From Raillietiella orientalis (lineage: Eukaryota): a stretch of DNA of 35,410 nt. The notes below the pieces were generated by a model. It made no database searches. It saw only the letters and a program-made list of their open reading frames with translations, and was not told where the DNA came from. The position numbers and the translations under genes are program-made. The DNA lies in assembly GCA_036172245.1 (NCBI GenBank), contig JAYWIR010000189.1, positions 1 to 35,410 on the forward strand. Reading direction: 5' to 3'. Position 1 is the stretch's first letter. Each line of letters opens with the position of its first letter. Shown here piece after piece: positions 11,874-35,410 of the stretch.

Positions 11874-11875
<2 letters not shown>

Positions 11876-11923
<48 letters not shown>

Positions 11924-13620: not shown

Positions 13621-13786
13621 AAGGAGGCTGCGCGAACGCAGCCTCCCAACCTAAAAATTATGCTTCCGAGTAACCCGCATTTGGGGTTATCGCGGAGGTC
13701 AGCCCCGCCGCCGTGCAATGGCAAGGCCTCGCTCCGGAGGAATTGCCATCGTGAACACAATTAAGACCTCGAAGCCAGGTAAGTAT
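13621..13786 (-). ncRNA. U1: U1 spliceosomal snRNA, full length (166 nt)
   Basis: 5' ATACTTACCTGG; helix H GAGGTC/GACCTC; SL1 loop GTTCACGATG; SL2 loop CATTGCAC; Sm site AATTTTTAG; perfect SL4 GGAGGCTGCG-TTCG-CGCAGCCTCC. Confidence 0.97.
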
Positions 13787-15990: not shown

Positions 15991-17177
15991 GTTTTAAAGG
16001 AATAGAGGAATACCAAAGTTGGGTATGATGAATAGTATTCGATAAACACCCGGCTGCGCATGCATTGATCTCGTGAACGGACCGCAGGCAACTGTGCTGA
16101 AGACTTCTTGTCGGCCGTCCGTGACTCCACTGGTGGACTACGCATCGGGATATTGTATCCAACATATTGAATCTGTCCAGCATCCATTGGACCGGACCAA
16201 GGGGAGGACGCGCGCATTGCGTGTTTTGGAAGGCCCCTCCCTCCCTCTTCAGCGATGCACATGCGGCTCCCCTGATGGATGAGAGGGGACTGACCGCCGC
16301 AAAGCCTTCGCTTGCTTCGGATGCATATTCCGCGGTTCTCTGCATGTCGATTGACACCGGCGGGGAACGCATGCACGGCCGAATGCTTTTGATCTTGTGA
16401 TTTGCCTTTCCGCAAATTCAGCGGTCCTCCCAAAAAAGGTTCCCACCGCCCCCTGCTGCTGCAATGCCTGCTCGGCCTCGGAAGAGGGCAGTTCGGCATC
16501 TGCAGCGTGGTCCGACAGAGGTTCGAGACAAGGGACGGAGGGTGGCAGAGTCCTCCCGAACTTCGGGTGCGTGGTCAGCCAGCCGGAAGAAGGTCTCCGG
16601 GAGTAAGGAGAAAACGTCAGCTTCGCGTGCTGGTGGCGCAGCCGTGTCTCTCCCCCCTCCACCCCGTCCCTCGCGACATTGCATGCCGGTCCAAGAGCAC
16701 GTGGAACACGCCGTTGCGTACGTGCGTTCCCGCGGCAAGTGCATTGCTGGCACGCCCAGAGGCACGCTGTCGTGTTCCACGCGAGCCACGTCGGCGCTCC
16801 CGGTGTCGCGGCTGCTAGAGGAGACGCCCAAAGGGTCTCCGCCTCCCGGCCCAAGGGGCAACGCCCCAAAGGCTCTCCACCGTGTCGGTCGCGTCCAATC
16901 CATGTCGCTGCCCTCTGCGTGGCACCGTGGCCTAAAAGAGTCACGTGGGCTCCTTGTGCCCATCTTCCTACTCCACCGACTGGTGGAGTAAGAATGGCGC
17001 TTCTTGGGCCTCACTTGCGCCGCGGCGCAGCCCGGCAAGCAGGCAGCCGCAAACGAAGAAAACCTGAAAGACGGCGGCCGATGAGGGAGATGCGAGCGAA
17101 TCGAAAACGTGCGCCCTGCCCTTACCTGTAGATCGAGAGCGTGGGGATAACCACGCAGCCGTGCACGTCCAAGAGGC

Positions 17178-20100
17178 GTGGGCTCTTGGACTGGGCTCGC
17201 CTGTCGCCGAAGGATCCGCGTGGCCTGTTGGAATGTCAACGGGCTGCGCGACGACGGCAACAGGCGAGATACATCCTGCGAGAATTCGACCTGGCGCTTC
17301 TGCAGGAGATCCACGTGATCACTGCAAGAGACGTCGAGGAGATCGAGAGGATCGCAGGGGGTCGGTTGTTTATCATCCGGGTGCGCCGGGGCGTTTATTA
17401 TAAACTATCCGGGAACAGAGTTCCTGGACAAAGGGGAAAACAAGATACGAAGGGGGTGGGATCCCCGAGACGCAGGTCGGTATGGCGAAAGTCCGGAACG
17501 GGAGGGAGGGGACCACAAATAGACTACCATAAAAAATAAAAATAAAAATATGGAGGGCAGGGGACAGGGGTCTTTGGTGAGTCCGTCCCTTTCTTGGGGT
17601 CGGTTGTATTGGCGATGCGGCAAGCGCAACACCTGCGGTGTCGCGTTCCTCCTGAAGCCAGCCGTCCACGCTTCCGTGAGGAACGTACGCTTCGATGACA
17701 ACGGTCGTGTTGGACAGATGATTCTATGCTGGTCTGACACGATCGATCTCATCGTTACCAACGTGTATGCTCCGAGCGGCAGCAAAGGGTACGCAGAAAG
17801 AACTCAGTTCTTCCAGTACCTGAAGCGCGACTGGCTGACGGATGCAGGAGTGCGCAAGGCCCACCTTTTTGCTTGCAGCACGCACCTGATAGCCGGGGAC
17901 TTTAACCTCCGCCTGCTCTCAGGTGCGTGCTGCACGCAAAAGAACGTGCCGATCGAGTTGTGCTCCGCCATGCGCGCGCGCAACTTGATGGAGGGACACC
18001 CGGAAATGGAGAACAGCATCGACCACGTCTTCCTCGACCACGACATGTGTACTCGAGTCGGTATACGAGGAAGGCTCCTGTCGACGCTGTCCGACCATTT
18101 CCGTCTGATGTTCGATGTCTGGCCACGCAATAAAGGACCCCTATCCAGGGCGTGGCGTCTACCGGGGGATTGGACGAGGCTCCCAGGTACGGCGGATCAT
18201 CTCCGCCAATTCCTGAGAGGCGTCACCCTCCGGAATCTCGAGGATTGGGACGTTTTCAAGCGTTCGGTCCGCGAGTTCTGTGAGGAGTTTCCCCTGGGCG
18301 CCTACCCTCCGGGCTTTTGGAAGGAACCGCAACGAAAGGGCGTATCTATACGCCCGTCGTTACGCGAGAACCCCCAACGTCCGTCGCCTGGCCGACTACC
18401 GAGCCGGGGCTGAGCGTCAAGCTTGGCAGTCCGGGCCGCACACCCGGGACGACCAGGACCGCGAACACTCGGCCCCGTCAGCGATTCGACACATGCTGAG
18501 AAAATTTTATTCCTCCTTGTATGCCAGGGGGCCTCCCGAGCAGGACGCCTCGCGACTGTTGCTCCCGGAAGGAGCCAAGGTCATAGGGGAGGAAGAGAAA
18601 GAAAGCCTCGACGAGCCTTTTACAACCGGTGAAATCGTCACCGCGATGAAAGGGCTCAAGAGGAGGAAGGCACCAGGGGAAGACGGCCTGCCCGCGGAGT
18701 TTTTTCAAGGCTTCACGGCAGAGTTAACCCCTTTGGTGCACAGATTGACACAGCTGATCCGGGAAGAAGGCGATGTTCCCGCCTCGTTCCGGTCAGCTAG
18801 GATGAGGTTCCTTCCTAAGGGAGGAGACCTCCGTAAGCTAACCAACTGGCGTCCGATCACTGTCGTGAATACGGACGTCAAGTTGGTCGCGAAACTGTGG
18901 GCTGCGCGGCTCGGACAGGTAGCCGAATCCGTAATTAGCCCGGAGCAGACATACGCTGTTCCCGGGCGAAGTATGGAGGCTAACCTGTTCTTCGCCAGCA
19001 CATGGTTCCATGCGCAACAAGAAAATAAAGAACGCAAGGGATCTCTCGGCTACCCCAATTTAAGGGTGACCGCTGGTCAGGGTGGGGACAGCCGGGCGGG
19101 TAAGGGTGCCCTAGAGATCGCAGTTGATCTTCATAAAGCGTTCGACTGCGTGGACCAGGAGCTCTTCCTGGAGCTTCTGCATCGCATGGGCTTCCCTCCT
19201 ACATTAACGGCGTACCTGCGCTCCTGCTGGCGAGCCGCGTTAACAAACATCTGTTTCAGAGGGCAGAACGTGTATGGCGTGCCGGTGCGCCGCGGGATTC
19301 GGCAGGGCGATAGCCCCAGTCCCCTGCTCTTTAGCACCTATTTCTAACTGGTGCTGAGAGCATACAGGATGACTTTGGCTGCCTTGCCAAGCTCGTGCCC
19401 CAGCACGCCTGCCGTGTCCGCATATGCCGACGATCTCCTGCTACTGCTCCCAATGTCCGCCCCGGCAACGGCAGTCGAATATTTCTTCAATCTGCTAAGC
19501 CGTGGGACAGGGCTACGGGTCAACAGGGCAAAATCGTCGATGGTGACAGTTGGAGCGACGTGGGTAGGACGGCCTGACTGGATCCGCCTGGGGATCCCGA
19601 CTGGCACACATCTGAAGTACCTTGGCGTTCCGCTGGGGGACTTCTGCCCGTCAGAGGCATGGTCAGGCCGTCTTCAGAAAGTGGATTTGGCGATCCGCCC
19701 GTTCCTGGACGGCAAGTTCCACTTGCCGGAACGGGCCGCAGTATGGAACGCTTTTGCGGCTCCCATCCTTCGCCCCCTACTTTTTGTTTGCCCGTCCCCA
19801 AAGAAATAAAAAAGAGGACCAAGGACCTCCTCCGCATCGCCCTTTGGGGCAAGGGGAGGCCCCGAGTCCCTTTGAAGGACCTTTGCGCTCCTCGTCGGGA
19901 CGGCGGACTTAGCCTCCTGACGCTGGAGCGCGTGGAGAAACAGCTGCGATGGCGTACCCTCGCCATCGCAGCGAAGATGTGGAGCACCCCGTGGTGCATT
20001 CCGGCTCGACTCCTCGCCAGTCGTGTGTCCTGGTGCGAGGGACTTGCGTCTTTTCTTCTGTGCCCCGGCCGGAAGATCAGAAGATGTGGCCTACAGCTCG

Positions 20101-21238
20101 GGCGCATGGCATCGTTGGCCATGGAGAACAGCTGGATGGTTTGCTGCCCCGCCAACTCCTCCGCCTGGCTGGAGGAGAACATCGGAACGTGGGCTGTGGT
20201 GAACCAGAGAAGCCACGTAACGTGGAATCGTCTCCGATGCGGCCCCTACGCCCGCTGCACTCTGAGGAATCTCCTGGAGAATCCAGCTAGAAGCACGTGG
20301 GTAGAGACAACCTGCCTGGCTACGGCGCTGCCCTTCCTGAGGAGGGAGCTTCACAGCAGCCGGACGCCAAGGTGGCAAGTCTCCTGCTGCATCGAGGGAC
20401 GGGAGAAAAGAATGAGCGGCTGGACCATGGGTCAACTGGCGGACGCCACGACCCCGAGCGTCCAGCCGCGAGGACTAAGAAGATGGGGCGAGCTGCTGGC
20501 CATCCCTATGGATGTGCTGAAGTGGCCCCCGCTTCTTCAGGAATCCAGGATTCTTCCCCTTAAGTGGAAAGAGTCGGCGTTGCTGTTGTTGCATTGGGGT
20601 TTACCCTGCAACGCACGCCGCTCCCACTGGACAAGAGGAGTTGTGGATCCTGCGTGTGTCAGGTGCGGAGAGCGGGAATCGCTCTCCCACCTTATTGTGG
20701 ACTGTGCTGCCCTTCGTCCCCTTTGGGAACGGTTTGGGACGACCCTCGGTCTCCCTACGGGCAGTTCCCCTAGAGACGTTCTTCGGCCCCTCTTCGTGAA
20801 GGACGCCCTGCAGCCAGCCGCAGCCATCGCAGCCTTGTGCTGCGTCCGAGGCATCGTGGCGGCATGGAGCGACACCAACAAGGAAGGAGTGGGTGAACAC
20901 GCGAGGGATGTCATCCCATATGCCCAACGCTTCTTGCGGAGAGCTGCTGGATGGCCCCAACTGGGGAACATACGGATGGACCTCGAGGGCTTCCTTCAAC
21001 GGATGGGCCCTCCTCTCAGCGAACAGTGATCCCTTCCCTGCCCTCCAACCTCTTTTGTTTGTTTGCGTTTTTATTTTTACTTTTGTTTTTTCCCCATCCC
21101 CTTTCGCTGCCGGGGAGTGCCACGCCGGGCTGCGTCCCGGCGTCCCGGTAGGTCCCGTGCATAAGGCCGTGAGCGGGGCCTGGTACCGCAATTGTAGAGT
21201 TTTTTATCAATAAACGCCCCGGGCGTACCCGGGTGGCA
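17178..21238 (+). mobile_element. LINE D1 (second L1/Tx1-like family): 5'-truncated, ORF2 pseudogene plus 3' UTR
   Basis: ACWNVNGL, LLQEIH, NVYAP, AGDFN, IDHV, SDH; WRPIT, DLHKAFD, GIRQGDSPSP, AYADD, KYLGV; CVRCGERESLSHLIVDC. Contains frameshifts and a stop at 19345-19347. Ends in AATAAA plus hairpin at 21209-21235. Confidence 0.93.
17370..17595 (-). mobile_element. 226-bp antisense nested insertion (3' tail of a D-like element) with 12-bp TSD
   Basis: GGGGTCGGTTGT at 17358-17369 and 17596-17607. Removing the insert restores IAGGRLYWRCG (D2 has IAGGRLFWQCG). Minus strand ends AATAAACGCCCCGGCGCACCCGGATGATAA. Confidence 0.92.
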
Positions 21239-23935
21239 ACTCCAAATCCCCGGGGCAGGCGGTGCAAAGGGAAATCCTCGCAGAACTCGCGGACCGAGAC
21301 CTTCATGCGGTCCCAATCTTCGAGGTTGTGGAGGATGACGTCTCTCAGGAACTGACGGAGATGTTCCGCCGCACCGGAGATGCGCGTCCAGTCCCCTGGC
21401 ATACGCCACGCCCTGGATGGTGGTCCTTTGTCGCGTGGCATAATTTCGATTATCAACCGGAAGTGGTCCGATAGCGTCGATGGAAGTTTCCCTCGTCTGC
21501 CGACCCGTGGGCACAGGTCGGCGTCAAGGAAGACGTGGTCTACGCTTTGGGCCATTTCCGGTAGGTCCCCCAGCAAGCTGCGCGTACGCATAGCGGCGCA
21601 CAACTCGTTGGTTGCGTCTTTTTGCCTGCAAGGCACACCTGAGAGCAGGCGGATGTTGAAATCCCCACCGATCAGATGTGCCTTGCGTACGTTTGTATCC
21701 GCCAGCCAGTCGCGCTTCAGGGTTTCGAGGAACCGGGAACGTTCCCCGTACCCGCGTCCTCCGCTCGGAGCGTACACATTAGTCACGACAAGGTCGATCG
21801 AGTCGGACCACCTAAGGATAAGCTGGCCAACCCGACTGTCCTTGTCGAATCGTACGTCCTTCACGAAGGAAGCGACTGCTGGCTTCATAAAAAACGCGAC
21901 GTCACAGGTGTTGCGAGCGCCGCATTGCCAAAATAGACGACCCCCTGCGATCCTTTCGATCTCCTGGGCGTTCTCCGCGGTGATCACGTGGATCTCCTGC
22001 AGGAGTGCCAGGTCGGAGTCACGCAGGGTGTCGGCCGTGTCCCGCCTGTTGCCGTCATCGCGCAGCCCGTTGACGTTCCAGCAGGCTACGCGTATCCTAC
22101 GGCGACAGGCGAGTCCAGGTGTTAATCCTGGGAAATTGGCAATGGGGCTCCCGCCACCTTGTCGGGCGGGACGCTAGGAGGAGGGGGTGCGTCGCGCACC
22201 GCTTCTCCCTCCTCCATGGAGGACGATTCGTCGTCGGGGCCTTGCAGAGGAAGTAGGGGTTCACCCACCTGCACATCCTCCTCCATGGGGGTCGCTAGCT
22301 GCACGGTGTCGGGGAATGAGATATTCCCACCCTCGCCTCCCACGCTGCCGGCTTCCCCCTCGGGGGCCGATTCATCCGCCTCCTTATTGATCCGGATGCG
22401 CCTCCTGGGATTCTGAGACTTCCGTCCCGTCTTCTTTGGTGGCGCCTCCGCTGAAGAGGACGCACTTTCGACGTCCGGATCGGCCTCACCTGCCTCCGGA
22501 GCCTTCCTCGCGGCCGTCCTTCGCAAGGCTTTTCGCGAGTTCTTTTCACGGCCTTGCAGTTCAGCCGCGAGTTCTTCCACCGCCTGCTGGAAGGCGGCCT
22601 CCTCGATCGCGTCGAGCGCGGCGCGCGGTTCCCCCTCTGTTTCGCCAGAGGGTTCACCATCGACCGTCGCGGCTTCGGCGGACGCGAGGGGGGGGATTGC
22701 TCCCCCGGCGGCGGCATCGGGTGCCTCCACACGTTCTAATTTTACCGAACACGCGCGGAGCTTTTCGCGGCACGGTTTTTCGCGCTGCGTTTTTGTTTTC
22801 ACCGCGTTTCGTTCGGGACTCCCGGGTTTTCTTCGTGGCTGTACCGTCTGCCAGCCTTCGCCGTCACCAGCGTCGTCGGGAGTGTTCTCAACCGACGTTT
22901 GCTGTGAGGGCTTAGGGACTGGCATCTGGGTGTTTACAGCCTGTTTCTGTGTATGCGTCTCTCTCGTGCGTTTCCCCTTTGCCTTTTTGGCAGCGGATGA
23001 GGACGGGATTTCTCTTCTTGGGCACACCTTACGGATGTGGCCCTTATTTCCACATAAGTGGCATTGGATGTTAGGGCACCGCTTTTTTAGATGCCCTGTA
23101 GCATCGCAATGGCCACAATACTTGGGCTTACCCACGTACCAAACATCGACTTTTTCTTCGCCGATATTCAGTTTGTGGGGAAGCCCACCATTCTCTGGTA
23201 GGGTGACGCGGGCTGCGGCCATCCCACTGAATAGCCTTCCGTACGTTCGAAAGACATTGGGTTTGGCCCAATACGCGTGCACACTACTATGCTTCGACAA
23301 CTCCTCATGGACGCTGGTTTTGTCCATTCGGAGTGATACACCTGTGAGGTGGACCACGACGGAGCGGTCCTCCGTCACAGGGAAGATCCTGCGGCCGTCC
23401 ACCGTAATAGGGGTGTTCAGCAGTCGCTGCGCCAGACTTGCCTCTTTGCATGTCAGCTCAACTCGCTGGCCCCCACTAAGGACGGATAGGCCTAAAAGGT
23501 CTTCCTCCCTCACGTTCAACCTTTGCAGCTCCATTTCGAAGGAGCGTGCAATTTTTTCATCAAACACACTGCCTACCCTATAGATCAGAGACGGCTTGTA
23601 GCCGCTGTCCTTGTAGGCAGTCTGCTCCGCTACTGCATCCGGGGATGGTGCAGCAACGACGTCACTCCAACTCCTCGCCAATGGCGAAGAGGGTCGCGAA
23701 GGGGCGGTTGCCCCCGATTCCGATGGGGCAAGTGCCCCGGATTCCGTGGGGGCGGATGCCCCCACTTTGATTGGTGGAGGAGAGCGTGTCGTTTCTCCTT
23801 CTCCAACTTCCATCGCAGTGTCCTCAGGCATTTCTGCCATGGGACACCGGTGCTCCCACACACCAGACAACCAACGAAAAGCTTCCCACTAACCAGTCCG
23901 TGGAGCGATGCCAAACCACGTCCGCTCCCTAGAAC
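21239..23935 (-). mobile_element. LINE D2: 5' half of a D-family element (5' UTR, ORF1, APE domain), cut off before the RT
   Basis: ORF1 22122-23870 followed by the APE frame RIRVACWNVNGL...LLQEIH...NVYAP...GGDFN...SDH, homologous to D1 and ending near 21240. Confidence 0.9.
22122..23870 (-). CDS. LINE ORF1 (gag-like nucleic-acid-binding protein); likely ATG start at 23840
   Basis: Open 582-codon frame with SWSDVV N-terminal motif, an RRM-like region, two CCHC knuckles (CGHCDATGHLKKRC, CHLCGNKGHIRKVC) and a low-complexity acidic tail. Confidence 0.9.
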   Translation of the reverse strand: MSGVWEHRCPMAEMPEDTAMEVGEGETTRSPPPIKVGASAPTESGALAPSESGATAPSRPSSPLARSWSDVVAAPSPDAVAEQTAYKDSGYKPSLIYRVGSVFDEKIARSFEMELQRLNVREEDLLGLSVLSGGQRVELTCKEASLAQRLLNTPITVDGRRIFPVTEDRSVVVHLTGVSLRMDKTSVHEELSKHSSVHAYWAKPNVFRTYGRLFSGMAAARVTLPENGGLPHKLNIGEEKVDVWYVGKPKYCGHCDATGHLKKRCPNIQCHLCGNKGHIRKVCPRREIPSSSAAKKAKGKRTRETHTQKQAVNTQMPVPKPSQQTSVENTPDDAGDGEGWQTVQPRRKPGSPERNAVKTKTQREKPCREKLRACSVKLERVEAPDAAAGGAIPPLASAEAATVDGEPSGETEGEPRAALDAIEEAAFQQAVEELAAELQGREKNSRKALRRTAARKAPEAGEADPDVESASSSAEAPPKKTGRKSQNPRRRIRINKEADESAPEGEAGSVGGEGGNISFPDTVQLATPMEEDVQVGEPLLPLQGPDDESSSMEEGEAVRDAPPPPSVPPDKVAGAPLPISQD

Positions 23936-24540
23936 GACCCGGGGAAGTGTGAACGCAAACTGTGCCCGGTGCGGGGAGCGGGAAATCCTCCCGCACCTTT
24001 TAGTTGAGTGTGCTGCCCTCCGGCCCCTGTGGGAACGTTTCGGTTCCACCTTAGGGATCCTGGAAGGTAGTCTTCCCAGAGACGTATTTCGGCTCCTCTT
24101 CGTGCGGGACGCCCTGCAGCCAGCCGCTGTTATAGCAGCTCTCTGCTGCGTACGCGGTATTGTGGCAGCTTGGAGTGGATCCGACGAAGCAGAGGATGTT
24201 AACAGAAGGAATGCCATAGAGTATGCAGCTCGCTTTCTGCGAATAGCATCCCGATGGCCCCACCTGGGAAATCTGCAGAAGGACCTCGTCGGCATCCTGC
24301 AAAGGATGGAAGCTCCACAAAACGGACAGTGATCCCTTCCCGGCCCTCCCAATGACCAGTGTTTCTACTTTTTATTTTTTTATTTTTGTTTTTTCCCTAA
24401 CCCCATCCGTTGACGTGGAGTGTTATGTCGGTCTGTGCACTGACCACCAGACAGCTCCATAGAACTATTGGCCGCAGCGGGACCTTGTACCGCAAATACT
24501 GTTAGTTTTTAAATAAACGCCCCGGCTTGACCGGGTGAAA
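23936..24540 (+). mobile_element. LINE D3: 3'-terminal fragment (zinc finger, ORF2 stop at 24332, 3' UTR)
   Basis: TRGSVNANCARCGEREILPHLLVECAALRPLWERFG aligns with D1. Ends AATAAACGCCCCGGCTTGACCGGGTGAAA. Confidence 0.9.
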
Positions 24541-27089: not shown

Positions 27090-27607
27090 GAACACGCACA
27101 CAGCATTCACGTAAAGCAAACGGGCTTGCGAAACAGCACAAAGAGTCAAAGGCCATAGCATTCAAGTGGGGTGAGCCGCCGGAATGCATACGGCCGTCTC
27201 GGGAGACGCGCAACGTCTGCCTGCGACGACTGGGTCGCGCGTGCGGCGCAGACAGGCGCACTCTCTGCGCGTGCGCGCGCACCGTTCGTTGCGACATGTG
27301 CCCCATCGCAAGAGGCTGGGGCGCTGGATGCAGCGACGAGTAGTGCGCAGATGGAAAAACAGAGGGAGAGAGAGGGGTGACGAGGCAAAGTGCTAAGCAA
27401 AAGGGAAAACGAAAACGGAAGATGAAATCCTGGAGGAAAAGCGGAAAAGCAGATACTGCAAAGGAGGAAGGGAATTAGGAAGCGTAGGAGACTGAGGCAA
27501 AGCAAGGAGAAGGTCAAGAGCAAGGGAAGCGAAAGTCTTGTAAAGAGGCAATACGGGGCAGGTGGATATGCGGAACGGGGAGGGGAAATGGGTGCAATAG
27601 AAGTTTC
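27090..27607 (+). promoter_or_regulatory. U1 upstream flank (expected promoter)
   Basis: Diverged duplicate of 13787-14311; conserved block at 27547-27570. Confidence 0.5.
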
Positions 27608-27773
27608 ATACTTACCTGGCTTCGAGGTCTTAATTGTGTTCACGATGGCAATTCCTCCGGAGCGAGGCCTGGCCATTGCACGCCGGCGGGGCTGACCTCC
27701 GCGATAACTCCAAATGCGGGTTACTCGGAAGCATAATTTTTAGGTTGGGAGGCTGCGTTCGCGCAGACTCCTG
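27608..27773 (+). ncRNA. U1: U1 spliceosomal snRNA, full length (166 nt)
   Basis: ATACTTACCTGG at 27608, CATTGCAC loop, Sm site AATTTTTAG at 27735-27743, SL4 with TTCG loop and one stem mismatch (AGACTCC). Confidence 0.97.
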
Positions 27774-29178
27774 CAAAAGCCAATGCAAAGACAGGAGAAG
27801 CGGTTGCTGCCGATCGCGTGCGGAGCGAAGCTTTCGGCTGTGCTTTCCGCCGTGAACTCTGGAGGAGAACACAGCGCTCTCTCTTCGGACAGCTGACGCG
27901 CGCCCCGGCCGGTGCGACCCAGCAAGGACACCACCCCTGGGTGGAGGACTCGGAATCCGCTCCACCTCAAGGATGGGGAAGTCCCCCTCGTGAACGTTGC
28001 CGAGGCCCGCGTCTCCGATGGCCGGCGGCCGGTGGCACCACCGTTCAAGCGGCCTGGCGCGCGCAAGCGTCGCGGCGGCGTCGCCACGACAAGCGACATC
28101 GCCAGCTAAGAGGGACGCGACGCCATCTTGCTGGAACGCCCCAGCCGGCCGTGGCAGCGGGCAAAGTGGCCCCCGACTGCACGAACGTTTTATAGAAGTA
28201 ATAAGGAAAGGGAGAAGGAGAATACTCCCGAGGGAACAGGAAGTTCCTGAAGAGAAGGAGGAAGTAAAGGAAGTAGTAGAAGAAGGCAAGATGGTGGACA
28301 AAGAAGAGCATAGAAATAGAAAGTGTCACGATAACAGAGGAAACCCTACAGGTTACCGAAGATCTGGGAAAATTAGCGGAAGAGGTTCAACAAGGAAATA
28401 TTGAAGAAAAGAAAGAGCAGGAACGGTTACTGCGACGATTTTGCGAACTGCAAGACGACATCAACAGAACGGTAGAGACAACCCACCGTGAGAAGCCGGA
28501 AAACAAGCTTCTCAAAGTAAAAGCAGAATACTGCGCGAAAGTGAGAAACTTCCGGACAGTGCCAATGAAAAGCCGGAACAGGGCACAGAAACCACCGACC
28601 TCAGAGGCACAGAAGGCGATATCCTCAAGAGGATTGAAGACGACGCCCAGGCAACGAAGTCAACCAATGTTCCCTAGGAAAAACAGGAGGATTTTCTAAA
28701 GGAGTGAACGCCCCCTTGTGAGGGGTCCCTCCGAGTCGTCGCCGCCCTACAGAGTGTGCACGCAAGGAAGCAAGCAAAAGCGATCCCCTGCGGAAAGCTG
28801 CAGCGCTCCTTTCAAGTTTCGGAAGTGTCCGTTCGAGGTTCTCTTCAAAGTAGTAAACAGAAGTGGTTCCCTTGCGGACACCCTCCAGAGAAGTGGAACC
28901 TCTCCGGGTTCCATTCAGAGAAGTTGAAATGGAGAGAGGACCACCCCCACCCCCCGTAAGGGGGACGTCCCGCCGGAGAGGATGAAGGAGGAGATTTTCC
29001 TTCGAGGACAACTAGCGTGGAATTGCGGTCCCCCCCCGCCCGTCCGGGGGGGATCCCTCCCCCAAGCGTGAGAGGAACGGACTCTGAGCCCTTCCTGGAC
29101 TTTATTTTATAAATGTACGAGCCATTGTAGCGAAAAAGATAAATAAATTCACCCCACCCCTTGTGGGACTAGGGGAAA
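27774..29178 (+). mobile_element. Unit A: 1405-bp non-autonomous LINE derivative; the first tens of bp may be native U1 3' flank
   Basis: Encodes ITEETLQVTEDLGKLAEEV...ENKLLKVKAEYCA (B ORF1: VSQEALQTTEEVKKLAEEV...EDKLLDVKANFCA) and ILKRIEDDAQ (B ORF2 end: ILKRIEDDAR). Hairpin motif at 29148-29169. Confidence 0.85.
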
Positions 29179-29220
29179 GTGTCAATTGTGATCAACACGG
29201 CTCACGACGGTTAATTAATT

Positions 29221-32200
29221 GTGATTATTTGTGATCGTGTGTGCCCTGAGAGGGCAAGTGCCAAAAAGACAGTAAGTGTGGAAGAGAGAGTGCTGCCGAG
29301 GATCATCCCTTACAACTGCAGCAGCAGCGCCGAGGAGACCACGGCGGAAGACCTGCAAACTTCCTCAGCGGCAGTACCAGCCGCCAGGATGCAGGCAACA
29401 GGAGGAGGAGCGAGGAGGCCGACGTCCCCCATAGAAGTAATCGAGGTACACTACGGCAGTGGTGAGGCGGCGGCGAGGCCGAGGATCGCGCGCGCGGCGG
29501 CAACGGTCGTGCCGGCGGCGGCGGTTAAGGTCGCGCCCGAGGCGGTGTCCCAGGCGGGACCCGCGGGCGTCCACGTGGCGAACATCGCGATGCCATCTTG
29601 CTCGGCTGCGGTGCTGCGGCCTTTTTCGTATGCGGCGGTGGCGGCGGGCCAGGCAAGTGCCCAGCCGCTGAGAAAATTTGACAGACCCGAGAGGGGAAAG
29701 ATCACCCGGGTCAAGGAGCCGATTGAGCGGCTCAGTCCAGCATCCAAACCGATAATGTTTAAGACCGGACTGATCCGATTTAACAACGTCAAGGAGGTCT
29801 ATTTAGCACTTTATAAGACCTATGTGGACTTTGATTACCTCCAGGCGATCATTCCTAGTACGACGGGGTTCACTATCTACACAGATAGTGAACCACTGAG
29901 GGAGGCCCTAATCGAGGAGGGCACAAACATCCAAGGGCGGATGGTTTGTGGGATCGGCGAAATGCCGTACACGACCGTCTTCCTGAAAGGCGTAAACGCT
30001 AATACTGAGCAGGACGCTGTTTGGGACTTCTTGTCCAAGTATGGGGAGGTTCTGGACGTAGAGTTCCAGAACATCTCCGGAAAAATCTTCTCTGGCGAGG
30101 TGATCACCAAGGTGAAGCTGCAAGAGGAGACACAGATCCCTGGGATTGTGCGTATTGATGAAGACTCCCAGGAGGTCTCTGTCTCTTATAGACAGCAACC
30201 TGTGTTCTGCACAGGTTGCAAACTTTTTGGCCATCGTCGGGGTGCCTGCCCCAGGGTTCGCTGCTTCCGCTGTGGGAAGCAGGGGCACCTGGTAAGCAGT
30301 TGCGACATGCCCGAGGTCTGCTCGTTTTGCAAGCAGCCAGGGCATGCGAGCTGGAGCTGCCCGGAGTTCGCAAACTACCGGACGATGCGTGGCCAGTCCC
30401 CCGTAAGGGAGAAGGTCTTGGCGGAGGTTGTGAAACCTCAAAAACAGTTGAAGCAGAGGGAGGCGAGGGAGACCGCTCCGGTTTCGGCGGACGGCTTTGT
30501 GGAGGCTGGTAAGAAGGGGAAGAGGAAGATGCTCATCAAGGATCAGGAAACTCCTCTAACCCAGGAAGTATTGGCAGTGGAAGGCGAAAATATGGAAGTA
30601 GCGGAAGAAAGCGAGAGGGCGGAAAAGGTGGAATCCATTCCGGTGTCGCAGGAGGCCCTGCAGACTACCGAAGAGGTCAAAAAATTGGCGGAGGAGGTTA
30701 TGGAAGTGCAGAGCGAACCTCAGCAGGAGCAACTCCTGCAGAAGATCTGCAATGCGCAACAAACAGTCAACCAGGTGGTGGAGGTTGCCGAGCGCGAGAA
30801 ACTGGAAGACAAACTTCTCGACGTAAAGGCAAACTTCTGCGCGCCAAGGTGGCGTTGGAAGCCCTCCCACGCAAGATCGTCGCACGAGCCGAGCACTCCA
30901 CCGAGGAGACCGACATCACCGATCTCACCGGGACGGAGAGCGACGCTGGCAGCGAGAAACCCGCTCCCGCTTCTTCGTCTGGAAGAGCACCACGCTCTCC
31001 CAGATAGAAGAAACACAGGAATGCCAAGAGGTAGGCCTTCCCCTTTTATGGCCTCAACCCTATCGACCGCCAGGAGGATTAACATCGCCTCCTGGAATGT
31101 AAATGGTCTGATCAACCAGGTTAAAAGAAGAAGGATTGTGCGGATCATCGCACAACAAGACATCGTGTGCCTGCAGGAGACCCACACGTTAGGTCTCCAG
31201 ATCATCCAGCAAATGGAACGACGCTTCGATGGGCAGATGTTCGTCAGCGAAGGACAGCGGAACACGGAAGGTGTGGTGGTCTTGGTCAAGAACCAACTGG
31301 CCCCTACCATTCTGGAAGTCTTCTGTCCCTTGCCGGGACGTATCATTGGCGTACGACTGGCCTGGTCCGCTAACGTTCACCTTTTCTTGGTAAACGTGTA
31401 CGGGCCACACAGGTACAAACATCGATTTGCGGAGGCGCTGCATGCGGCACTGCGGGAAAAGGTGGCGCCCAAGGACGTCGTGATCGTTGCTGGCGATCTC
31501 AACATCCGGGACGAAATAATATATTCCCAGGACGCCAGAGGAAGGACGGCGTATCGGCGGCTTTCCGGCGAGTTCGGATTGCTGTGGCGAACGGCAAGCC
31601 ACAGGCCAATAGACCACGTCCTTCACAGTACTGAATCAGGGAACCGCATTGAAGGTTTTCGTGACATCCCCAACGCGTTGTCCGATCACTCGTTGGTGCG
31701 ATTTTCCTTAAGGACGGAAAATCCTCGGCGAAGGCAAGGCACCAGGGCGGCGCTCATCAGCATGCCCACCTGGTTCGAGAATCCTCCCTGTCATCAGGAA
31801 GTTCTGGAGACGATTCTGAAGACCACCACGATCCGAAGAGTCGCCGACTGGGACAGCCTGAAGCACAGGATCCATCTCTTTGCAAATATGCAATTCGGAG
31901 ATAGAAGGAGATGGAGGCAGGAGGCGTACCGGAAGCTGAACATCCAAGATCGCTCCCTCTCAAAGTACTTTGATCAGTACGAGAGTCGGTACGTCTTCCA
32001 TAGCATAAAAGGGGAAGTCGGCGTACTGGAGAAGAAGAATCTGGCCACAGATATCTTTCGGATTCATAGCCGACACACGTCGGAGGACATCGTGGATGCC
32101 TTCGAAAGGCATTACACGAAACACTTTCGGCGCGATCATCTGTGTCAGGCGATACAGAATACCTTCCTGAGCCATCTGAAAAGGAAGATTGGCGAGCTCC

Positions 32201-33675
32201 AGCGTAAGAGTCTGGAGGAGGATTTTTCCGAGGAAGAGGTGAAGACTGCGTTCAAGGAATTACGCAAGGATGTGGCGGCAGGACCTGACAGTGTTCCCAT
32301 CAGTCACTATCAACGGTACCTGCACGCCTACTTGCGGTTATTCCACCAGTTGACCCTCTGCATCCGCCAAGAAGGACGATTGCCGGAGTCCTTCTACGAG
32401 AGTAGGACGAGATTGTTGCCGAAAGGAGGTGATCTAATAACGCAGGTCACCCAATGGAGGCCAATCTCAGTGCTCAACTCGGATGCCAAGTGGTTGGCAA
32501 AGATCTGGGCCAACCGCTTAGGCAAGGTTATGTCGAGGCTGATTTCTCCCGTCCAGAGATGTGCGGTACCGGGACGCCACATGTCGGACAATGTTAAGTG
32601 CGCGCAGGCCACCGTGGGACTTGGCCGATACGTCGGCGAGAACCTGGTGCTCGCGTTCACCGACATGGAGAAAGCCTTCGACACCATCGACCACGGGATG
32701 CTGCTGAAGATTCTGGAAAAACTGGGACTTCCCGAATACTTCAGCACCTTTGTGGAAATGATCCTCCGGAATCAACGTTTCCGGATGAAGATCAACGGTT
32801 TGGAAACAGCAGCTATTCGGAGGGAACGAGGAGTCCGGCAAGGAGACTCGCTAAGTCCGATGCTGTTTGTTATCTATATGGAGGCGCTCTCTTCATTTAT
32901 TGAGAACAGTGGGAGATTACAAGGAATAAAAATTGACAACCAAAAGCTCACCCATCTCGCCTACGCGGATGATCTTCTCTTCTTCATCAGGGGAAAGAGG
33001 AATCAACAAGCGTTATTGGATGTGGTGATGCTCATGAAAGAGGGACTGGGCCTGAAGATCAACGCCCAGAAGAGCCAGCTTTTGCCCGTCGGTATCCTGG
33101 AAATCTCCGCTCTCACGGGGAGAGGATTCCGAACGGTGGACACGGCCAAGTACCTGGGAGTGTACATTGGCGACGACGCTGCGTCGAAGCTACTGTGGAA
33201 GGAAATCCTGGGGAAAACGGCAGAGGAAGCAGCGAAATACACCCAACTGGGTTTTGACATGAAGCGAAAGGCCAACCTATGGAATGGAGTACTCCTTCCA
33301 AAGGTACTCTTGGGAACGGCCTTCGCCAAGTTGAACAAAGAAAACACCAGAGAAGTGGAAAAGCTGCAGAGGAAAACATTGTGGGGACACTATCGCCCAA
33401 GAGTCCGACTGAAACAACTGTGTCGTCCCAGGGAAGAAGGCGGTTCAGGGATGAAGTCGCTCGCACATTTCATGGAAATCATGGATATGCAACACATCCT
33501 GGACATCGCTACTCACTGGGATGACCGGCCGTACGCGGCCCACAGAGCCTACGCGTTGTTGTTGAACAACTCGAAAGGCATGATGACTGGTGCTGGAAGA
33601 ACAGAACAGGAGAAGTGGAACACCATCGACCTCACCTGGATACGAAAACAATTAGTGTGCGAAAGCACGAGATAA
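29221..33675 (+). CDS. Fused ORF1-ORF2 frame (first ATG 29389; ORF2 ATG 31021): 3 CCHC knuckles, APE, RT
   Basis: CTGCKLFGHRRGAC, CFRCGKQGHLVSSC and CSFCKQPGHASWSC, followed in frame by APE and RT motifs. Breaks in the noisy patch 33590-33700. Confidence 0.9.
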   Translation: MIICDRVCPERASAKKTVSVEERVLPRIIPYNCSSSAEETTAEDLQTSSAAVPAARMQATGGGARRPTSPIEVIEVHYGSGEAAARPRIARAAATVVPAAAVKVAPEAVSQAGPAGVHVANIAMPSCSAAVLRPFSYAAVAAGQASAQPLRKFDRPERGKITRVKEPIERLSPASKPIMFKTGLIRFNNVKEVYLALYKTYVDFDYLQAIIPSTTGFTIYTDSEPLREALIEEGTNIQGRMVCGIGEMPYTTVFLKGVNANTEQDAVWDFLSKYGEVLDVEFQNISGKIFSGEVITKVKLQEETQIPGIVRIDEDSQEVSVSYRQQPVFCTGCKLFGHRRGACPRVRCFRCGKQGHLVSSCDMPEVCSFCKQPGHASWSCPEFANYRTMRGQSPVREKVLAEVVKPQKQLKQREARETAPVSADGFVEAGKKGKRKMLIKDQETPLTQEVLAVEGENMEVAEESERAEKVESIPVSQEALQTTEEVKKLAEEVMEVQSEPQQEQLLQKICNAQQTVNQVVEVAEREKLEDKLLDVKANFCAPRWRWKPSHARSSHEPSTPPRRPTSPISPGRRATLAARNPLPLLRLEEHHALPDRRNTGMPRGRPSPFMASTLSTARRINIASWNVNGLINQVKRRRIVRIIAQQDIVCLQETHTLGLQIIQQMERRFDGQMFVSEGQRNTEGVVVLVKNQLAPTILEVFCPLPGRIIGVRLAWSANVHLFLVNVYGPHRYKHRFAEALHAALREKVAPKDVVIVAGDLNIRDEIIYSQDARGRTAYRRLSGEFGLLWRTASHRPIDHVLHSTESGNRIEGFRDIPNALSDHSLVRFSLRTENPRRRQGTRAALISMPTWFENPPCHQEVLETILKTTTIRRVADWDSLKHRIHLFANMQFGDRRRWRQEAYRKLNIQDRSLSKYFDQYESRYVFHSIKGEVGVLEKKNLATDIFRIHSRHTSEDIVDAFERHYTKHFRRDHLCQAIQNTFLSHLKRKIGELQRKSLEEDFSEEEVKTAFKELRKDVAAGPDSVPISHYQRYLHAYLRLFHQLTLCIRQEGRLPESFYESRTRLLPKGGDLITQVTQWRPISVLNSDAKWLAKIWANRLGKVMSRLISPVQRCAVPGRHMSDNVKCAQATVGLGRYVGENLVLAFTDMEKAFDTIDHGMLLKILEKLGLPEYFSTFVEMILRNQRFRMKINGLETAAIRRERGVRQGDSLSPMLFVIYMEALSSFIENSGRLQGIKIDNQKLTHLAYADDLLFFIRGKRNQQALLDVVMLMKEGLGLKINAQKSQLLPVGILEISALTGRGFRTVDTAKYLGVYIGDDAASKLLWKEILGKTAEEAAKYTQLGFDMKRKANLWNGVLLPKVLLGTAFAKLNKENTREVEKLQRKTLWGHYRPRVRLKQLCRPREEGGSGMKSLAHFMEIMDMQHILDIATHWDDRPYAAHRAYALLLNNSKGMMTGAGRTEQEKWNTIDLTWIRKQLVCESTR

Positions 33676-33724
33676 AAAGGTCCAGTCAGAAAGTAGGGAA
33701 CTCTGGCAGGAGGAATCCATCCTG

Positions 33725-34561
33725 GTGATCCCATGGATGCTTCCGGTCCCCCAAGACACGAGAAGCTGGATCTGCCAGCGATCCAGAGTTACCCTACAAC
33801 GCATCCAGGAGTTCAGAAGAGGAGTACACCCACATCACACTCGTATACTTCGGTATGTAGAGATGATGGTGGGAAGGTTCACCCATATGACCCGCGAAGT
33901 GTGGATCAACCACGATGACCTCGCGTGGTCCAGGGTAACCAAGATGAACCTCCGAAGAATGATTAAGGATGAGAACCAAGACACCAGCGTCCTCCAAGAA
34001 GCTGCCGATCGCTACGGGAGTAACCGTTTTGACCTGTTGGCGTTTGGCACGACACTCTGGAGGGATGACCTTCCGCCGGACACTGTGGACGAACTCCTGA
34101 TGTTCTATCATGGAGGAATCCAGACTGGGTCCAGGCTCAAGCATTTCACAGGAAGACGGGAAGATGAAGACTGCAGGGCATGTGGAGACATCGATACGAG
34201 ACTACACATCTTGACGTGTCCCACTTTGCTACGCGACTGGCTGATCCTGAAAGGGATCATAGGACAAAACAAGTCCGTGATGGAAATCCTCTCCGGGATG
34301 TTTCAGGGAGATGGTAAGGTTCCCTGTTACAATGCCATGGTGAGGATGACCATTGCCCTCTTCATCACCGCCATACTTTTGCGGTGGTGGAATATGAGAA
34401 ATGCCAGGAGAACCAGAACCCCCATGGAGATCCTACAAGGACTCATCCGCAGGGAGATTGGTATCAGGAACTGTGGACGACTCCAAGCCTGGACGTACCG
34501 ATTTATCCTGAAGAGGATTGAGGACGACGCACGGGACCAAACATCTGGAAACCCACCCTGA
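33725..34561 (+). CDS. C-terminal part of B ORF2 (zinc finger), separated by a frameshift that may be a consensus error
   Basis: Matches the last 277 aa of ORF 6759-10298. Confidence 0.85.
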   Translation: MIPWMLPVPQDTRSWICQRSRVTLQRIQEFRRGVHPHHTRILRYVEMMVGRFTHMTREVWINHDDLAWSRVTKMNLRRMIKDENQDTSVLQEAADRYGSNRFDLLAFGTTLWRDDLPPDTVDELLMFYHGGIQTGSRLKHFTGRREDEDCRACGDIDTRLHILTCPTLLRDWLILKGIIGQNKSVMEILSGMFQGDGKVPCYNAMVRMTIALFITAILLRWWNMRNARRTRTPMEILQGLIRREIGIRNCGRLQAWTYRFILKRIEDDARDQTSGNPP

Positions 34562-34699
34562 ATGCAGAACTTTGAGTGTCCCAACGGACCTTCAAGTGAA
34601 GTGAAAGTGATAATATATTGTGTGAATGAAATTGTAGTATGAATGTTTAAGAAAAATTTGAAAAAAAAATTCACCCCACCCCTTGTGGGACCTGGAGAA

Positions 34700-34841
34700 A
34701 ATTGTGTTCACGACGGCAATTCCTCCGGAGCGAGGCCTGGCAATTGCACGCCGGCGGGGCTGACCTCCGCGATAACCCCAAATGCGGGTTACTCGGAAGC
34801 ATAATTTTTAGGTTGGGAGGCTGCGTTCGCGCAGACTCCTG
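34700..34841 (+). pseudogene. U1: 5'-truncated U1 snRNA (nt 25-166)
   Basis: 142 nt with the same variants as 569-710 and 6479-6620 (GACGG in SL1, GGCAATTGCAC in SL2). Confidence 0.95.
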
Positions 34842-34859
34842 CAAAACCAACTCCAAAGA

Positions 34860-35260
34860 AAATCGCCCAACGTTGTTCAAGAACGGTGATCTCCCCTCCA
34901 CCCTCCGAACGCCGTGTACCTGCGTGGCGTACACTGCAACACCGCGCAGGAAGACGTGTGGGACCACTTCTGCCGGTTCGGAGGAGGTGAAGGAGGTGTC
35001 CTTCGGCAACTACGTGGACGAACTGTTCTCGCGAGAGGTCATGGTGAAGATCAAGCTCTCCGTGGATGTGCGGATCCCGGGCATCGTCAGGATGGACGAA
35101 TATTCCCAGGATGTACAGTGCGCTATCGCCTGCAGCCCGTCTTCTGCGCGGGCTGCAAGGAGTTTGGGCACCGCATAGGCGCTTGCCCGGAAGCGAAATG
35201 CTCCGAGTGCGGTCAAGTCGGGCACTGCATAAAGGATCGCACCGGTTGCACTGCCTAATT
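34860..35260 (+). pseudogene. Unit C: degenerate ORF1 RRM-like + knuckle fragment of a B-related LINE
   Basis: VYLRGVHCNTAQEDVWDHFCRFG, FSREVMVKIKL and YRLQPVFCAGCKEFGHRIGACPEAKCSECGQVGH align with B VFLKGVNANTEQDAVWDFLSKYG, FSGEVITKVKL and YRQQPVFCTGCKLFGHRRGACPRVRCFRCGKQGH. Confidence 0.85.
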
Positions 35261-35410
35261 TTGCCGCCGCTGCGTAGTTGGGCGTAAGATGGTGCCGCCG
35301 CTGCCACGCCGGGCGCGTTGCTACGGGAGATTGCTCCTCTCCTGCCGAGTCGGTAAACTTGCTTCGCGGCTCAAAGTATTGTGCGCTCGACAACTTAATC
35401 TGTTAATTGT

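Follow-up and report, generated by a model that had tools for sequence, protein, structure and literature searches.

L1-like retrotransposons stacked behind a complete U1 snRNA gene in Raillietiella orientalis: a possible U1-targeting lineage

Site-specific LINEs are under development for gene insertion. LINEs specific for rDNA, telomeres, 5S, U2 and U5 genes, or microsatellites have been described (PMC4494074, PMC4640811), and the same two papers regard snRNA genes as an unfavourable niche on account of their low number. Keno, a member of the Tx1 clade specific to the U2 snRNA gene, is an APE-type non-LTR element that is associated with one fixed nucleotide of a spliceosomal snRNA gene (PMC4494074, PMC4640811), a description that also fits the element presented here; according to the available text of the second paper, Keno was not found outside animals (PMC4640811). 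Utopia-1_NVit is described as occurring occasionally in tandem in U2 genes (PMC4640811), and Mutsu as leaving a 5S remnant directly downstream of the element (PMC5340908). No U1-targeting retrotransposon was found in the literature searched.

Self-blastn of the window (the whole stretch of DNA analysed, 35,410 nt from Raillietiella orientalis) revealed a single locus shown three times, by way of an old inverted duplication and a tandem copy. The arms of the inverted repeat extend to both window edges (1 against 35404) and enclose a unique central part of 12.8 kb. In the right arm, a complete U1 gene is followed by a leader, element A, element B, U1 nt 25-166, a second leader and element C:

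27090 to 27607, + strand: U1 upstream flank, putative promoter region in which no promoter element was recognised (self-blastn, 11983-14311 against 29409-27090)
27608 to 27773, + strand: complete U1 snRNA gene (Rfam RF00003, 118.8 bits, model positions 1-166)
27774 to 27815, + strand: post-U1 leader, the first 18 nt of which are matched at 14/18 positions by those following the downstream U1 copy
27774 to 29183, + strand: element A, non-autonomous, related to B but internally deleted and with broken reading frames (tblastx against B)
29184 to 29299, + strand: decayed U1 body and leader-like stretch, between the A tail and the B 5' UTR (motifs, collinear alignment)
29300 to 34699, + strand: element B, a full-length L1-like LINE (Pfam Exo_endo_phos (APE) and RVT_1; zf-CCHC below cut-off)
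34700 to 34841, + strand: U1 nt 25-166, without nt 1-24 (Rfam hit 34679-34841, 89.2 bits)
34842 to 35410, + strand: 18-nt leader, then element C, running off the window (tblastx, translation)

The left arm repeats this order with one additional unit of A+B and U1 nt 25-166, and the two A+B copies are called M2 and M1 below:

13787 to 14311, - strand: counterpart of the U1 upstream flank (pairwise alignment, 95% mean column identity)
13621 to 13786, - strand: complete U1 gene (Rfam RF00003, 127.2 bits)
6621 to 13620, - strand: M2, the A+B copy adjoining the complete U1, with an intact ORF2 (6759-10298)
6479 to 6620, - strand: U1 nt 25-166 between the tandem A+B copies (Rfam hit 6479-6641, 89.2 bits)
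711 to 6478, - strand: M1, an A+B copy from which 1.2 kb, the equivalent of 30641-31870, are deleted internally
569 to 710, - strand: U1 nt 25-166, distal copy (Rfam hit 569-731, 89.2 bits)
1 to 568, - strand: leader and element C (1-3537 against 35404-31871)

A first-pass annotation of this DNA had described a LINE block lying between a complete U1 and a U1 without exactly nt 1-24, and both Rfam and blastn confirmed this architecture. The complete U1 at 27608 has the 5' splice-site-binding end, the loop II AUUGCAC motif and the Sm site, and folds canonically in the Rfam alignment, in agreement with the earlier view that the host U1 is left intact upstream. Its match to the three lower-scoring copies is limited to U1 nt 25-166 (142/142 aligned, 97.9%, blastn), and the U1 nt 25-46 pattern occurs five times in the window against 0 expected. 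The copy at 34700-34841 differs from the complete copy at 27608 at three positions (nt 39, 67 and 102); the three 5'-cut copies are identical among themselves and match nothing else exactly. U1 nt 25-166 had also been described as a direct repeat of 142 bp, and a direct repeat is indeed present, with a length of 160 nt (27632-27791 against 34700-34859, 96%, repeat family D10), made up of U1 nt 25-166 and 18 nt past the U1 3' end. The nt 24/25 site, placed by the annotation at the foot of stem-loop I, is not strictly there: in the Rfam alignment it comes after a bulge of 3 nt that separates the lower part of this stem-loop from the upper. In the Rfam scan, no ribozyme or any family besides U1 reached threshold, mir-3149 and RsmV being weak matches far under it.

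The coding capacity of element B is distributed over two reading frames in the right arm:

29389 to 33675, + strand: 1428-aa ORF, with an ORF1-like part fused in frame to APE and RT (ORF list, Pfam, translation)
33656 to 34561, + strand: ORF2 C-terminal part with a Cys/His motif, in a separate frame here and continuous in the left-arm copy
34667 to 34691, + strand: 25-nt tail motif, 8 nt ahead of the junction with U1 nt 25

Within the long ORF, CCHC knuckles are found near 30259-30306, the APE domain at about 31087-31690 and the RT domain at about 32422-33165 (Pfam, Exo_endo_phos E 5.5e-21 and RVT_1 E 1.1e-32 for 29389-33675), and the intact 1179-aa ORF2 at 6759-10298 on the - strand carries the same APE and RT domains. 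The zf-CCHC match scored 20.3 bits against a cut-off of 20.8; three CxxC...H...C motifs are present in the translated ORF1-like part and one more in the C-terminal ORF, a piece for which Pfam gave no match. The best solved-structure match for B is human LINE-1 ORF2p (E 4e-54), with R2 proteins at E 6e-25 or worse and the L1 endonuclease at E 3e-07; TRAS1 or R1 endonuclease is absent among the 15 structure matches listed. On these domain and structure matches, B can be classified as an APE- and RT-bearing non-LTR retrotransposon of L1-like type, and the APE-type assignment made in the first-pass annotation holds. The database proteins closest to its RT are only 28-33% identical, the nearest relative being from the green (streptophyte) alga Closterium (30% identity). 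In a quick tree of 31 RT rows without a labelled Tx1 reference, B is on a long branch with one unnamed protein as its sole partner (SH-aLRT 93), separate from the fish, plant, tunicate and Closterium groups.

Over their last 100 nt the three B copies are identical (34600-34699, 6621-6720 and 711-810, blastn), and each of these tails abuts U1 nt 25 in the alignment. The earlier statement that the three 3' ends of B join U1 at the same base therefore stands, while the sequence given for the joint, TCTT|AATTGTG, is that of the intact gene, the B|U1 junction itself reading GGAGAA|AATTGTG. The region from 34200 to 34846 shows 0 differences in all three pairwise comparisons of B copies, so that the junctions are mutual copies and amount to one observation instead of three. 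Folding of the tails gave small hairpins no better than those of shuffled sequences (z -0.27 to 0.40).

A second junction is provided by element A. A and B had been treated as one block, and tblastx separates them into two elements. A consists of a leader and 5' UTR, an ORF1-C-terminal-like stretch (28150-28600), the final 19 ORF2 codons (28621-28677), a 3' UTR and a tail; its similarity to B is at the protein level only (25-68%, tblastx), with one exception:

29145 to 29169, + strand: 25-nt tail motif of A (blastn-short, 25/25 identical to B 34667-34691)

Around this motif the A and B 3' UTRs do not align by self-blastn. The A tails meet U1 sequence starting at nt 25 in three of three copies, which are again copies of one another. 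Taken together, the A and B tails appear to represent two junctions from two diverged family members at one locus.

U1-derived sequence was also found ahead of the elements. The first 42 nt or so after the complete U1 (27774-27815) resemble the start of the B leader. In the decayed body at 29184-29299, U1 nt 25-46 are recognisable, with a small internal duplication, and the motifs AATTGTGNTCA and TCACGAYGG are confined to the U1 copies and this decayed body, with 8 matches each for expectations of 0.03 and 0.47. The B leader is collinear with U1 from nt 25 to +42 with a score of 52.25, a value reached by none of 300 shuffles (23.5 +/- 4.6) and by none of 300 window controls (maximum 45.35). 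A local alignment of the B leader with the post-U1 leader alone gave 23-25, for shuffles at 17-19 +/- 2.5-2.7 and maxima of 29-33, and did not reach significance, leaving the collinear alignment as the one that exceeds its controls. Element C, which starts 18 nt after the U1 body, is a diverged, frameshifted relative of the B ORF1 with CCHC knuckles (34984-35231 against B 30046-30294, 40-61% amino-acid identity, tblastx). A, B and C are thus each preceded by a U1 body and a similar short leader. The leader before A is identical in M1 and the right arm, as are the two A sequences. Before C, 4 of 18 leader positions are different, compared with 3 of 142 positions in the adjoining U1 bodies (Fisher p 0.003), and a leader variant that apparently moves with its element argues against plain duplication of the target flank.

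From the upstream flank through U1 to ~500 nt into A, the two arms are about 8% apart. Comparison of the copies revealed blocks with 0 differences next to blocks that are 17-27% different, a mosaic due to gene conversion later than the old duplication. The uniform divergence of ~8% from the flank through U1 and into the A of M2 suggests that M2 is the old unit and the distal M1 a newcomer. The RT of M1 is 4-5% away from those of the other two copies, and the differences in this region (36 synonymous and 37 non-synonymous, dN/dS 0.28, binomial p 4.6e-7) have been shaped by purifying selection and point to copies stemming from active lineages rather than dead duplicates.

Sequencing run X1 (6% of words) yielded 189 contigs matching the block at 80% likeness, of which 3 were at least 99% identical, 15 between 95 and 99%, 45 between 90 and 95% and 126 below 90%. 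Of 30 bins of 27774-35300, 27 are covered by these contigs, mostly at less than 90% likeness, which reflects many diverged copies elsewhere; cover is zero on 27774-28024 and from 34802 onward, and the loose ends and pieces listed gave no information on the tail/U1 junction. In one contig of the same run, position 34562 is joined to 29137, so that a B-like 3' UTR carries a tail of the A type.

Our tentative proposal, to which we give somewhat less than an even chance, is that an L1-like LINE lineage integrates specifically at U1 snRNA genes, stacking in head-to-tail order behind a single intact U1. Each repeat would comprise U1 nt 25-166, a short leader, an element and a tail with the conserved 25-nt motif, and the series of A, B and C would have U1 nt 1-24 and the U1 flank as its upstream cap. 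The endonuclease would nick the antisense strand of the U1 gene between nt 24 and 25, and the freed 3' end would prime reverse transcription at the element tail. With the U1 body on both sides of the insert, a complete U1 would be kept or rebuilt upstream and a 5'-cut U1 pushed downstream; the complete upstream U1, presumably active, would then serve again as target. The U1 body may have been duplicated by one of three routes: (a) a read-through RNA from the U1 promoter would act as template, its U1 head annealing to the upstream target; (b) second-strand cleavage would take place at the U1 3' end, 142 bp downstream, and leave a long target-site duplication; or (c) the reverse transcriptase would jump to a U1 precursor as template. 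The final structure left by the read-through route would equally result from two cuts staggered by 142 bp, from such a template switch, or from a cut in the U1 3' flank with nt 25-166 as the 3' end of the element. In the case of R2, upstream target sequence on the co-transcript has been proposed to base-pair with the target and so to prime second-strand synthesis (PMC3774820).

U1 targeting had been put forward in the first-pass annotation, and the tie to U1 is now stronger than it was then, with A and B both ending at nt 25 and all three elements preceded by a U1 body and leader; it is based on one locus. Identity to the complete gene is 98% in the downstream U1 body, while the A and B 3' UTRs fail to align, as expected if the body derives from the target. 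Several observations nevertheless speak against the proposal. The nt 25 junction common to A and B could have been inherited from a common ancestor and not made twice. An old M2 and a newcomer M1, as suggested above, are the reverse of simple serial insertion at nt 24/25, and C looks 5'-truncated yet follows U1 and 18 nt, which would need an internal deletion. The linkage of variants fits integration in the U1 3' flank slightly better, gene conversion being also able to explain it. Decay has gone much further in the U1 body before B than in that before C, and A+B would for this reason have moved or been copied as a composite. On balance, a cut at nt 24/25 is mildly favoured over integration behind the U1 3' end. 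A fuller version of the proposal, which we regard as doubtful, is that of a LINE lineage living on U1 genes and leaving them functional: RNA reading through from the external U1 promoter would carry U1 at both ends, which would guide and complete homology-based integration at a further U1 gene, and each full-length insertion would return a working U1, a promoter for the new copy and a fresh target, giving a self-renewing refuge that expands into head-to-tail arrays.

The serious alternative, in our estimate somewhat unlikely, likewise assumes a U1-homing lineage and reads the unit the other way round. The element would comprise leader, body, tail and U1 nt 25-166 as an inherited 3' end, and would integrate after the U1 3' end at CTG|CAAAAG, by L1-type priming at the A-rich flank behind U1 or behind the U1 remnant of an earlier unit; the U1 gene would never be cut, U1-type 3' processing would set the RNA 3' end, and nt 25 would be a frozen accident of the founder insertion. 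Such a unit agrees with the extent of the perfect-identity block, which in each of the three copies extends from 34200 across the tail and the entire U1 remnant and stops within 6 nt of the U1 3' end, even where both copies precede the same old, ~8%-diverged C; a sharp edge at this point could, on the other hand, also be produced by homology-limited gene conversion with M2, after which a different leader follows, as partner. A substitution at nt 67, a highly conserved C before AUUGCAC, is common to the three U1 remnants and absent from both complete genes. The U1 body ahead of A differs between M1 and the right arm at 3 of 78 positions and the next 1159 positions at none (p 2.4e-4), so that this body does not appear to be co-inherited with A in M1. 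Units able to land behind any U1 3' end would allow M2 to be the right-arm orthologue and M1 the newcomer, a 5'-truncated-looking C directly after U1 +18 would be natural, and an A-run opens the flank after the U1 end as it does in the flank of the F element, whose tail is unrelated. A U1 remnant inherited through the A/B split should, however, have diverged like the 3' UTRs, and it has kept 98% identity to the complete U1. LINE 3' recognition signals usually lie near the element 3' end, whereas the sole conserved 3' UTR motif, located 8-14 nt from the tail|nt 25 junction, would then lie ~150 nt inside the RNA. The sequence also reveals no mechanism by which U1 3' flanks would be located.

That the locus reflects no U1 specificity is, we think, quite improbable. 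An L1-type element that happened once to enter a U1 copy at a generic TT|AA, with segmental duplication (tandem and inverted) and gene conversion afterwards, would suit a window that holds one duplicated locus with identical junction regions in three B copies, as well as a complete U1 in which TTAA is read once, at nt 23-26. A second locus was not retrieved by exact-pattern scans of three contig collections, the 22-nt tail motif and the 29-nt U1 stretch each having 0 matches in metagenome_contigs, genome_contigs and viral_contigs. Left unexplained, however, are the ending of a different family member, A, at the same U1 nt 25, the U1 body and leader before each of A, B and C, and the purifying selection among copies (dN/dS 0.28, p 4.6e-7). 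Moreover, the related D and F elements in the window, which have another tail, are without U1 association, their 3' flanks being non-U1 in 2/2 cases.

An equally slim chance is given to the U1 pieces being passengers, acquired by a non-specific LINE through transduction or template switching, with the array then built by DNA recombination with the real U1 gene. Recombination and conversion are abundant at the locus, and LINE template switching onto snRNAs has been proposed for the U1/U2 heads of SINEU, which Tx1-type LINEs mobilise (PMC4494074). After such a switch the snRNA part would end at the mature 3' end, but the post-U1 flanks are alike for 18 nt further, which a mature U1 RNA template would not yield; three units in the same register capped by a complete U1 and its flank would in addition need several independent recombination events. 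An assembly artefact, in which mis-joined or cross-polished repeat copies gave rise to the block mosaic and palindromic layout, is very improbable indeed: the inverted repeat touches both window ends and 0-difference blocks alternate with blocks 8-27% different, but the arms are unlike in structure (the extra tandem unit) and ~8% apart in unique flank, the central 12.8 kb are unique, and the U1/element junctions fall within long, consistent blocks.

Two further models were rejected. A spacer-deletion model would have priming at nt 24/25 of one tandem U1 and joining to the 3' flank of the gene before it; A and B, which are both complete at their 5' ends and start in the same register, contradict this. 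An old tandem array diverging in situ is at odds with a distal U1 remnant 98% identical to the gene beside A, B and C that are alignable only as protein, and with the dN/dS value too.

If the proposed integration at U1 genes is correct, a U1-tied retrotransposon lineage would represent a new LINE target, and an insertion product with a complete upstream gene would spare the host a cost. Insertion that keeps the gene would explain both the persistence of the family on a low-copy target and the transcription of a promoter-less LINE. A system that restores its target gene and site would also be of interest for gene insertion; the claim rests on one locus, and its present value is that of a testable lead.

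In comparison with known systems, the locus resembles 28S rDNA-specific R2 by analogy, in that under read-through from the U1 promoter the element would depend on the promoter of its target gene. With its restriction-like endonuclease and ribozyme, R2 interrupts the 28S gene and takes along no more than 36 nt of upstream target, whereas the whole U1 (or 142 nt) would be carried here and the gene restored, and no ribozyme was found in the Rfam scan. The rDNA-specific R9 of bdelloid rotifers reportedly produces a target-site duplication of exceptional length, 126 bp, and is likewise a site-specific LINE duplicating more than 100 bases of its target gene; R9 belongs to the R2-like group and is found in 28S rDNA, while the duplicated stretch here would reach the exact end of the RNA-coding region, with the whole gene kept. 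Utopia (U2, restriction-like endonuclease) and Mutsu (5S, Tx1 clade) share with the present elements the apparent specificity of LINEs for small multicopy RNA genes; both disrupt the targeted copy, and no regenerated gene is described in the available text of their source papers.

The U6/L1 chimeras and SINEU, with its U1/U2-derived heads, also present an snRNA joined to the 5' end of LINE-mobilised units, for which template switching has been proposed (PMC4494074); they are dispersed, not gene-targeted, and derived from mature snRNA, in contrast to the present units, which lie at a U1 gene and in which the similarity goes on for 18 nt past the U1 3' end. Targeting of the U1 snRNA gene is a property of Dada-U1, the only such transposons reported in the available text of PMC4640811, which are cut-and-paste DNA transposons with 6-7-bp target duplications and no reverse transcriptase. 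Compared with Keno, the probable target here is U1 and not U2, and the gene is unsplit, with a complete copy remaining upstream of the stacked elements.

In the window, 1-14311 and 27090-35404 form the two arms of a large inverted repeat, the left one with an extra tandem unit, and Rfam gives five matches to U1 snRNA. Three of these are cut copies, made up of U1 nt 25-166 without nt 1-24:

27608-27773 (+), complete U1 gene (Rfam, all 166 model positions aligned)
13621-13786 (-), complete U1 gene (Rfam, all 166 model positions aligned)
ends at 34841 (+), 6479 (-) and 569 (-), cut U1 copies, nt 25-166 only (Rfam and blastn)

Both complete genes have the canonical stems, the AUUGCAC loop and the Sm site in the Rfam alignment. 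The complete U1 at 27608 is separated from the cut U1 at 34700 by a block of 6.9 kb, and Rfam and blastn bear out the first-pass annotation, which had placed it between a whole U1 and one lacking nt 1-24. The direct repeat described there is present on both sides, but it measures 160 nt (U1 nt 25-166 plus 18 nt) rather than 142 bp. At 34699, 6621 and 711 the block ends in the same 100 nt, and the next base is U1 nt 25 each time, as had been noted; the element side of this junction reads GGAGAA, not TCTT, and the Rfam alignment puts the site where the lower part of stem-loop I gives way to the upper, not strictly at the foot.

The block codes for an apurinic-type endonuclease (APE), a reverse transcriptase (RT) and CCHC knuckles, and human LINE-1 ORF2p is the best solved-structure relative of its protein; judged by these predicted domains and this relative, the element is L1-like. 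In the right-arm copy (29389-33675, +), an ORF1-like part, APE and RT form a single frame of 1428 aa, which is interrupted ahead of the C-terminal domain. In the left-arm copy proximal to the complete U1 (6759-10298, -), ORF2 is whole (1179 aa) and starts just upstream of APE. None of the copies in the window has every part intact. The proximal left copy also carries a perfect 26-nt palindrome (11953-11979) in a stretch gapped relative to the right arm, with a sub-threshold match to a miRNA family (30.9 bits against a cut-off of 100).

The block consists of two elements, a short one (A) followed by a full-length LINE (B, 29300-34699, +), and a third relative (C) stands downstream:

27774-29183 (+), element A: ORF1-like stretch, end of ORF2, 3' UTR and a 25-nt motif
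after the cut U1 (34700) and 18 nt (+), element C: frameshifted ORF1 homologue, 40-61% identical to that of B

Part of A (28150-28600) resembles the C-terminal part of B ORF1 (30457-30944) at 25-39% amino-acid identity, and is directly followed by the last 19 codons of ORF2, 68% identical to B. The 25-nt motif after the 3' UTR of A is identical to that in the tail of B; otherwise A and B show no alignment at the DNA level. A is thus non-autonomous, with an internal deletion, and belongs to a diverged subfamily. Fourteen nucleotides past its motif, U1 resumes from nt 25 onward, with a small internal duplication. Within the window, the U1 words AATTGTGNTCA and TCACGAYGG are confined to the five U1 copies and the three A/B boundaries, with 8 matches apiece where 0.03 and 0.47 would be expected, and 29184-29300 aligns collinearly with U1 nt 25 to +42, with a score reached by 0/300 shuffles and 0/300 control segments; the part of this boundary corresponding to the leader (the short CAAAAGCC-type stretch directly 3' of U1 copies) gave no significant local alignment when aligned alone. 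The 18 nt after the cut U1 at 34700 match the first 18 nt of A at 14 positions. The order of the locus is thus flank, U1 1-166, leader, A, tail, decayed U1 from nt 25, leader-like stretch, B, tail, U1 25-166, leader and C, which by sequence comparison places three diverged relatives in one and the same register. Decay has gone much further in the U1 body before B than in that before C, so A and B must have been propagated as a composite.

In a three-way alignment, the arms diverge by about 8% from the upstream flank through the complete U1 and ~500 nt into the block, and the A+B copies form a strong mosaic, in which long stretches with 0 differences stand beside blocks 17-27% different. The right arm shares an identical 5' part of A with the distal left copy, and is identical to the proximal left copy over most of B. 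None of the three pairwise comparisons shows a difference from 34200 to a point 6 nt past the U1 3' end; the B/U1 junctions were therefore copied or homogenised, and the three count as one data point. Such a mosaic suggests that gene conversion recurred or that templates were recombinant, the donors lying outside the window. Moreover, 36 synonymous and 37 non-synonymous changes separate the RT region of the distal left copy from the other two (dN/dS 0.28, binomial p 4.6e-7), and other diverged blocks give dN/dS of 0.40-0.58. The A+B copies thus do not look like simple dead duplicates; this signature of selection implies that the diverged sequence evolved in active elements and arrived by insertion or conversion from other copies. 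Further copies are present outside the window: 189 contigs of one sequencing run aligned to the block, 126 of them less than 90% alike. The window begins and ends inside C copies, and the inverted repeat extends to both ends (1 and 35404-35410); if the window is the whole contig, the assembly probably broke within this repeat.

Further diverged L1-like LINEs occupy the unique middle of the window (16455-24535) and serve as a control:

about 17196-21227 (+), element D: L1-like LINE, APE/RT at about 17196-20717, tail end near 21227
about 23888-21240 (-), element E: L1-like LINE, ORF1 with CCHC at 22122-23888, APE at 21016-22173, truncated by the 3' end of D
about 23496-24535 (+), element F: 3' fragment of an L1-like LINE

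D and F have a common tail, with a GC palindrome after AATAAA, that differs from the A/B tail, and their 3' flanks are non-U1 in both cases and mutually unrelated.

The arrangement of A, B and C makes it probable that their lineage integrates specifically at U1 genes. A complete U1 is always in front of the product, and four routes yield this identical static structure. A nick at nt 24/25 could be followed by reverse transcription of an RNA beginning at the U1 promoter, the U1 head of the cDNA annealing to the upstream half of the target; the same nick, with the second strand cut where U1 ends, would give a 142-bp target duplication; the template might be switched onto a U1 precursor; or the element might possess U1 25-166 as its own 3' end and integrate in the A-rich flank that directly follows a U1 3' end.

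We tentatively favour a cut at nt 24/25, at somewhat less than even chances, over integration at the 3' flank, which we regard as a somewhat less likely alternative. For the latter speak the identity of the three cut U1 copies, including a common change at the conserved loop-closing C, and the linkage of the cut U1 to the 3' UTR of B in a block ending at the U1 3' end. Additionally, the U1 body before the distal left A was not co-inherited with that A (3/78 versus 0/1159; p 2.4e-4), the uniform 8% divergence from the flank into the proximal A suggests that the proximal unit is the old one, and C is apparently 5'-truncated yet follows U1 +18. However, homology-limited gene conversion, evidently frequent at this locus, can produce every one of these patterns, and the cut at nt 24/25 is for this reason kept slightly ahead. 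In its favour, the sole conserved 3' motif lies 8-14 nt from the junction of tail and nt 25, and the downstream U1 body still matches the gene at 98%, even though the 3' UTRs of A and B have diverged past alignment. The leader is far more diverged than the adjoining U1 body (4/18 versus 3/142; p 0.003) and its variant moves with the element, not with the locus, which speaks against a duplicated stretch reaching into the flank. The complete read-through model of the first-pass annotation, with its template RNA from the U1 promoter, appears improbable as a whole. A chance insertion followed by duplication does not account for the register repeated across diverged members or for the selection signature.

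Between the arms, the complete U1 copies show 5/166 differences against 41/518 in the flank (p 0.03), which weakly supports constraint on them. The variant positions in U1 are nt 39, 67 and 102. Nt 39 is T in both complete copies (27646 and 13748), whereas the remnant after A and all three cut copies have C, within a CpG; the T looks like CpG decay, which raises the question of whether the complete copies are fully constrained.

In protein searches the nearest proteins are 28-33% identical, and in a quick 31-row tree without labelled Tx1 references the RT shares a long branch with one unnamed protein only. The top relative of ORF2 (30% identity) comes from the alga Closterium, several strains of which carry the very large LINE family to which it belongs; this is at most a hint of a non-animal host. 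Searches of the full-text literature found no U1-targeting retrotransposon, though an unpublished entry in Repbase or Dfam may exist. Rotifer R9 elements reportedly generate an exceptionally long target duplication, as the route with a second-strand cut would here. In PMC4640811, targeting of snRNA genes is reported only for Keno and Utopia (U2), Dada-U1 (U1) and Dada-U6 (U6), and a figure legend of PMC4494074 lists U5 and 5S as further Tx1 targets. R2, for which PMC3774820 postulates that upstream target sequence kept on the transcript anneals to the target, is a precedent for the annealing of a U1-headed cDNA. The arrangement is real and unusual; on the evidence of this one locus, the most likely reading is an element of a familiar kind, the site-specific APE-type LINE, with U1 as a new target and a product that leaves the target gene intact.
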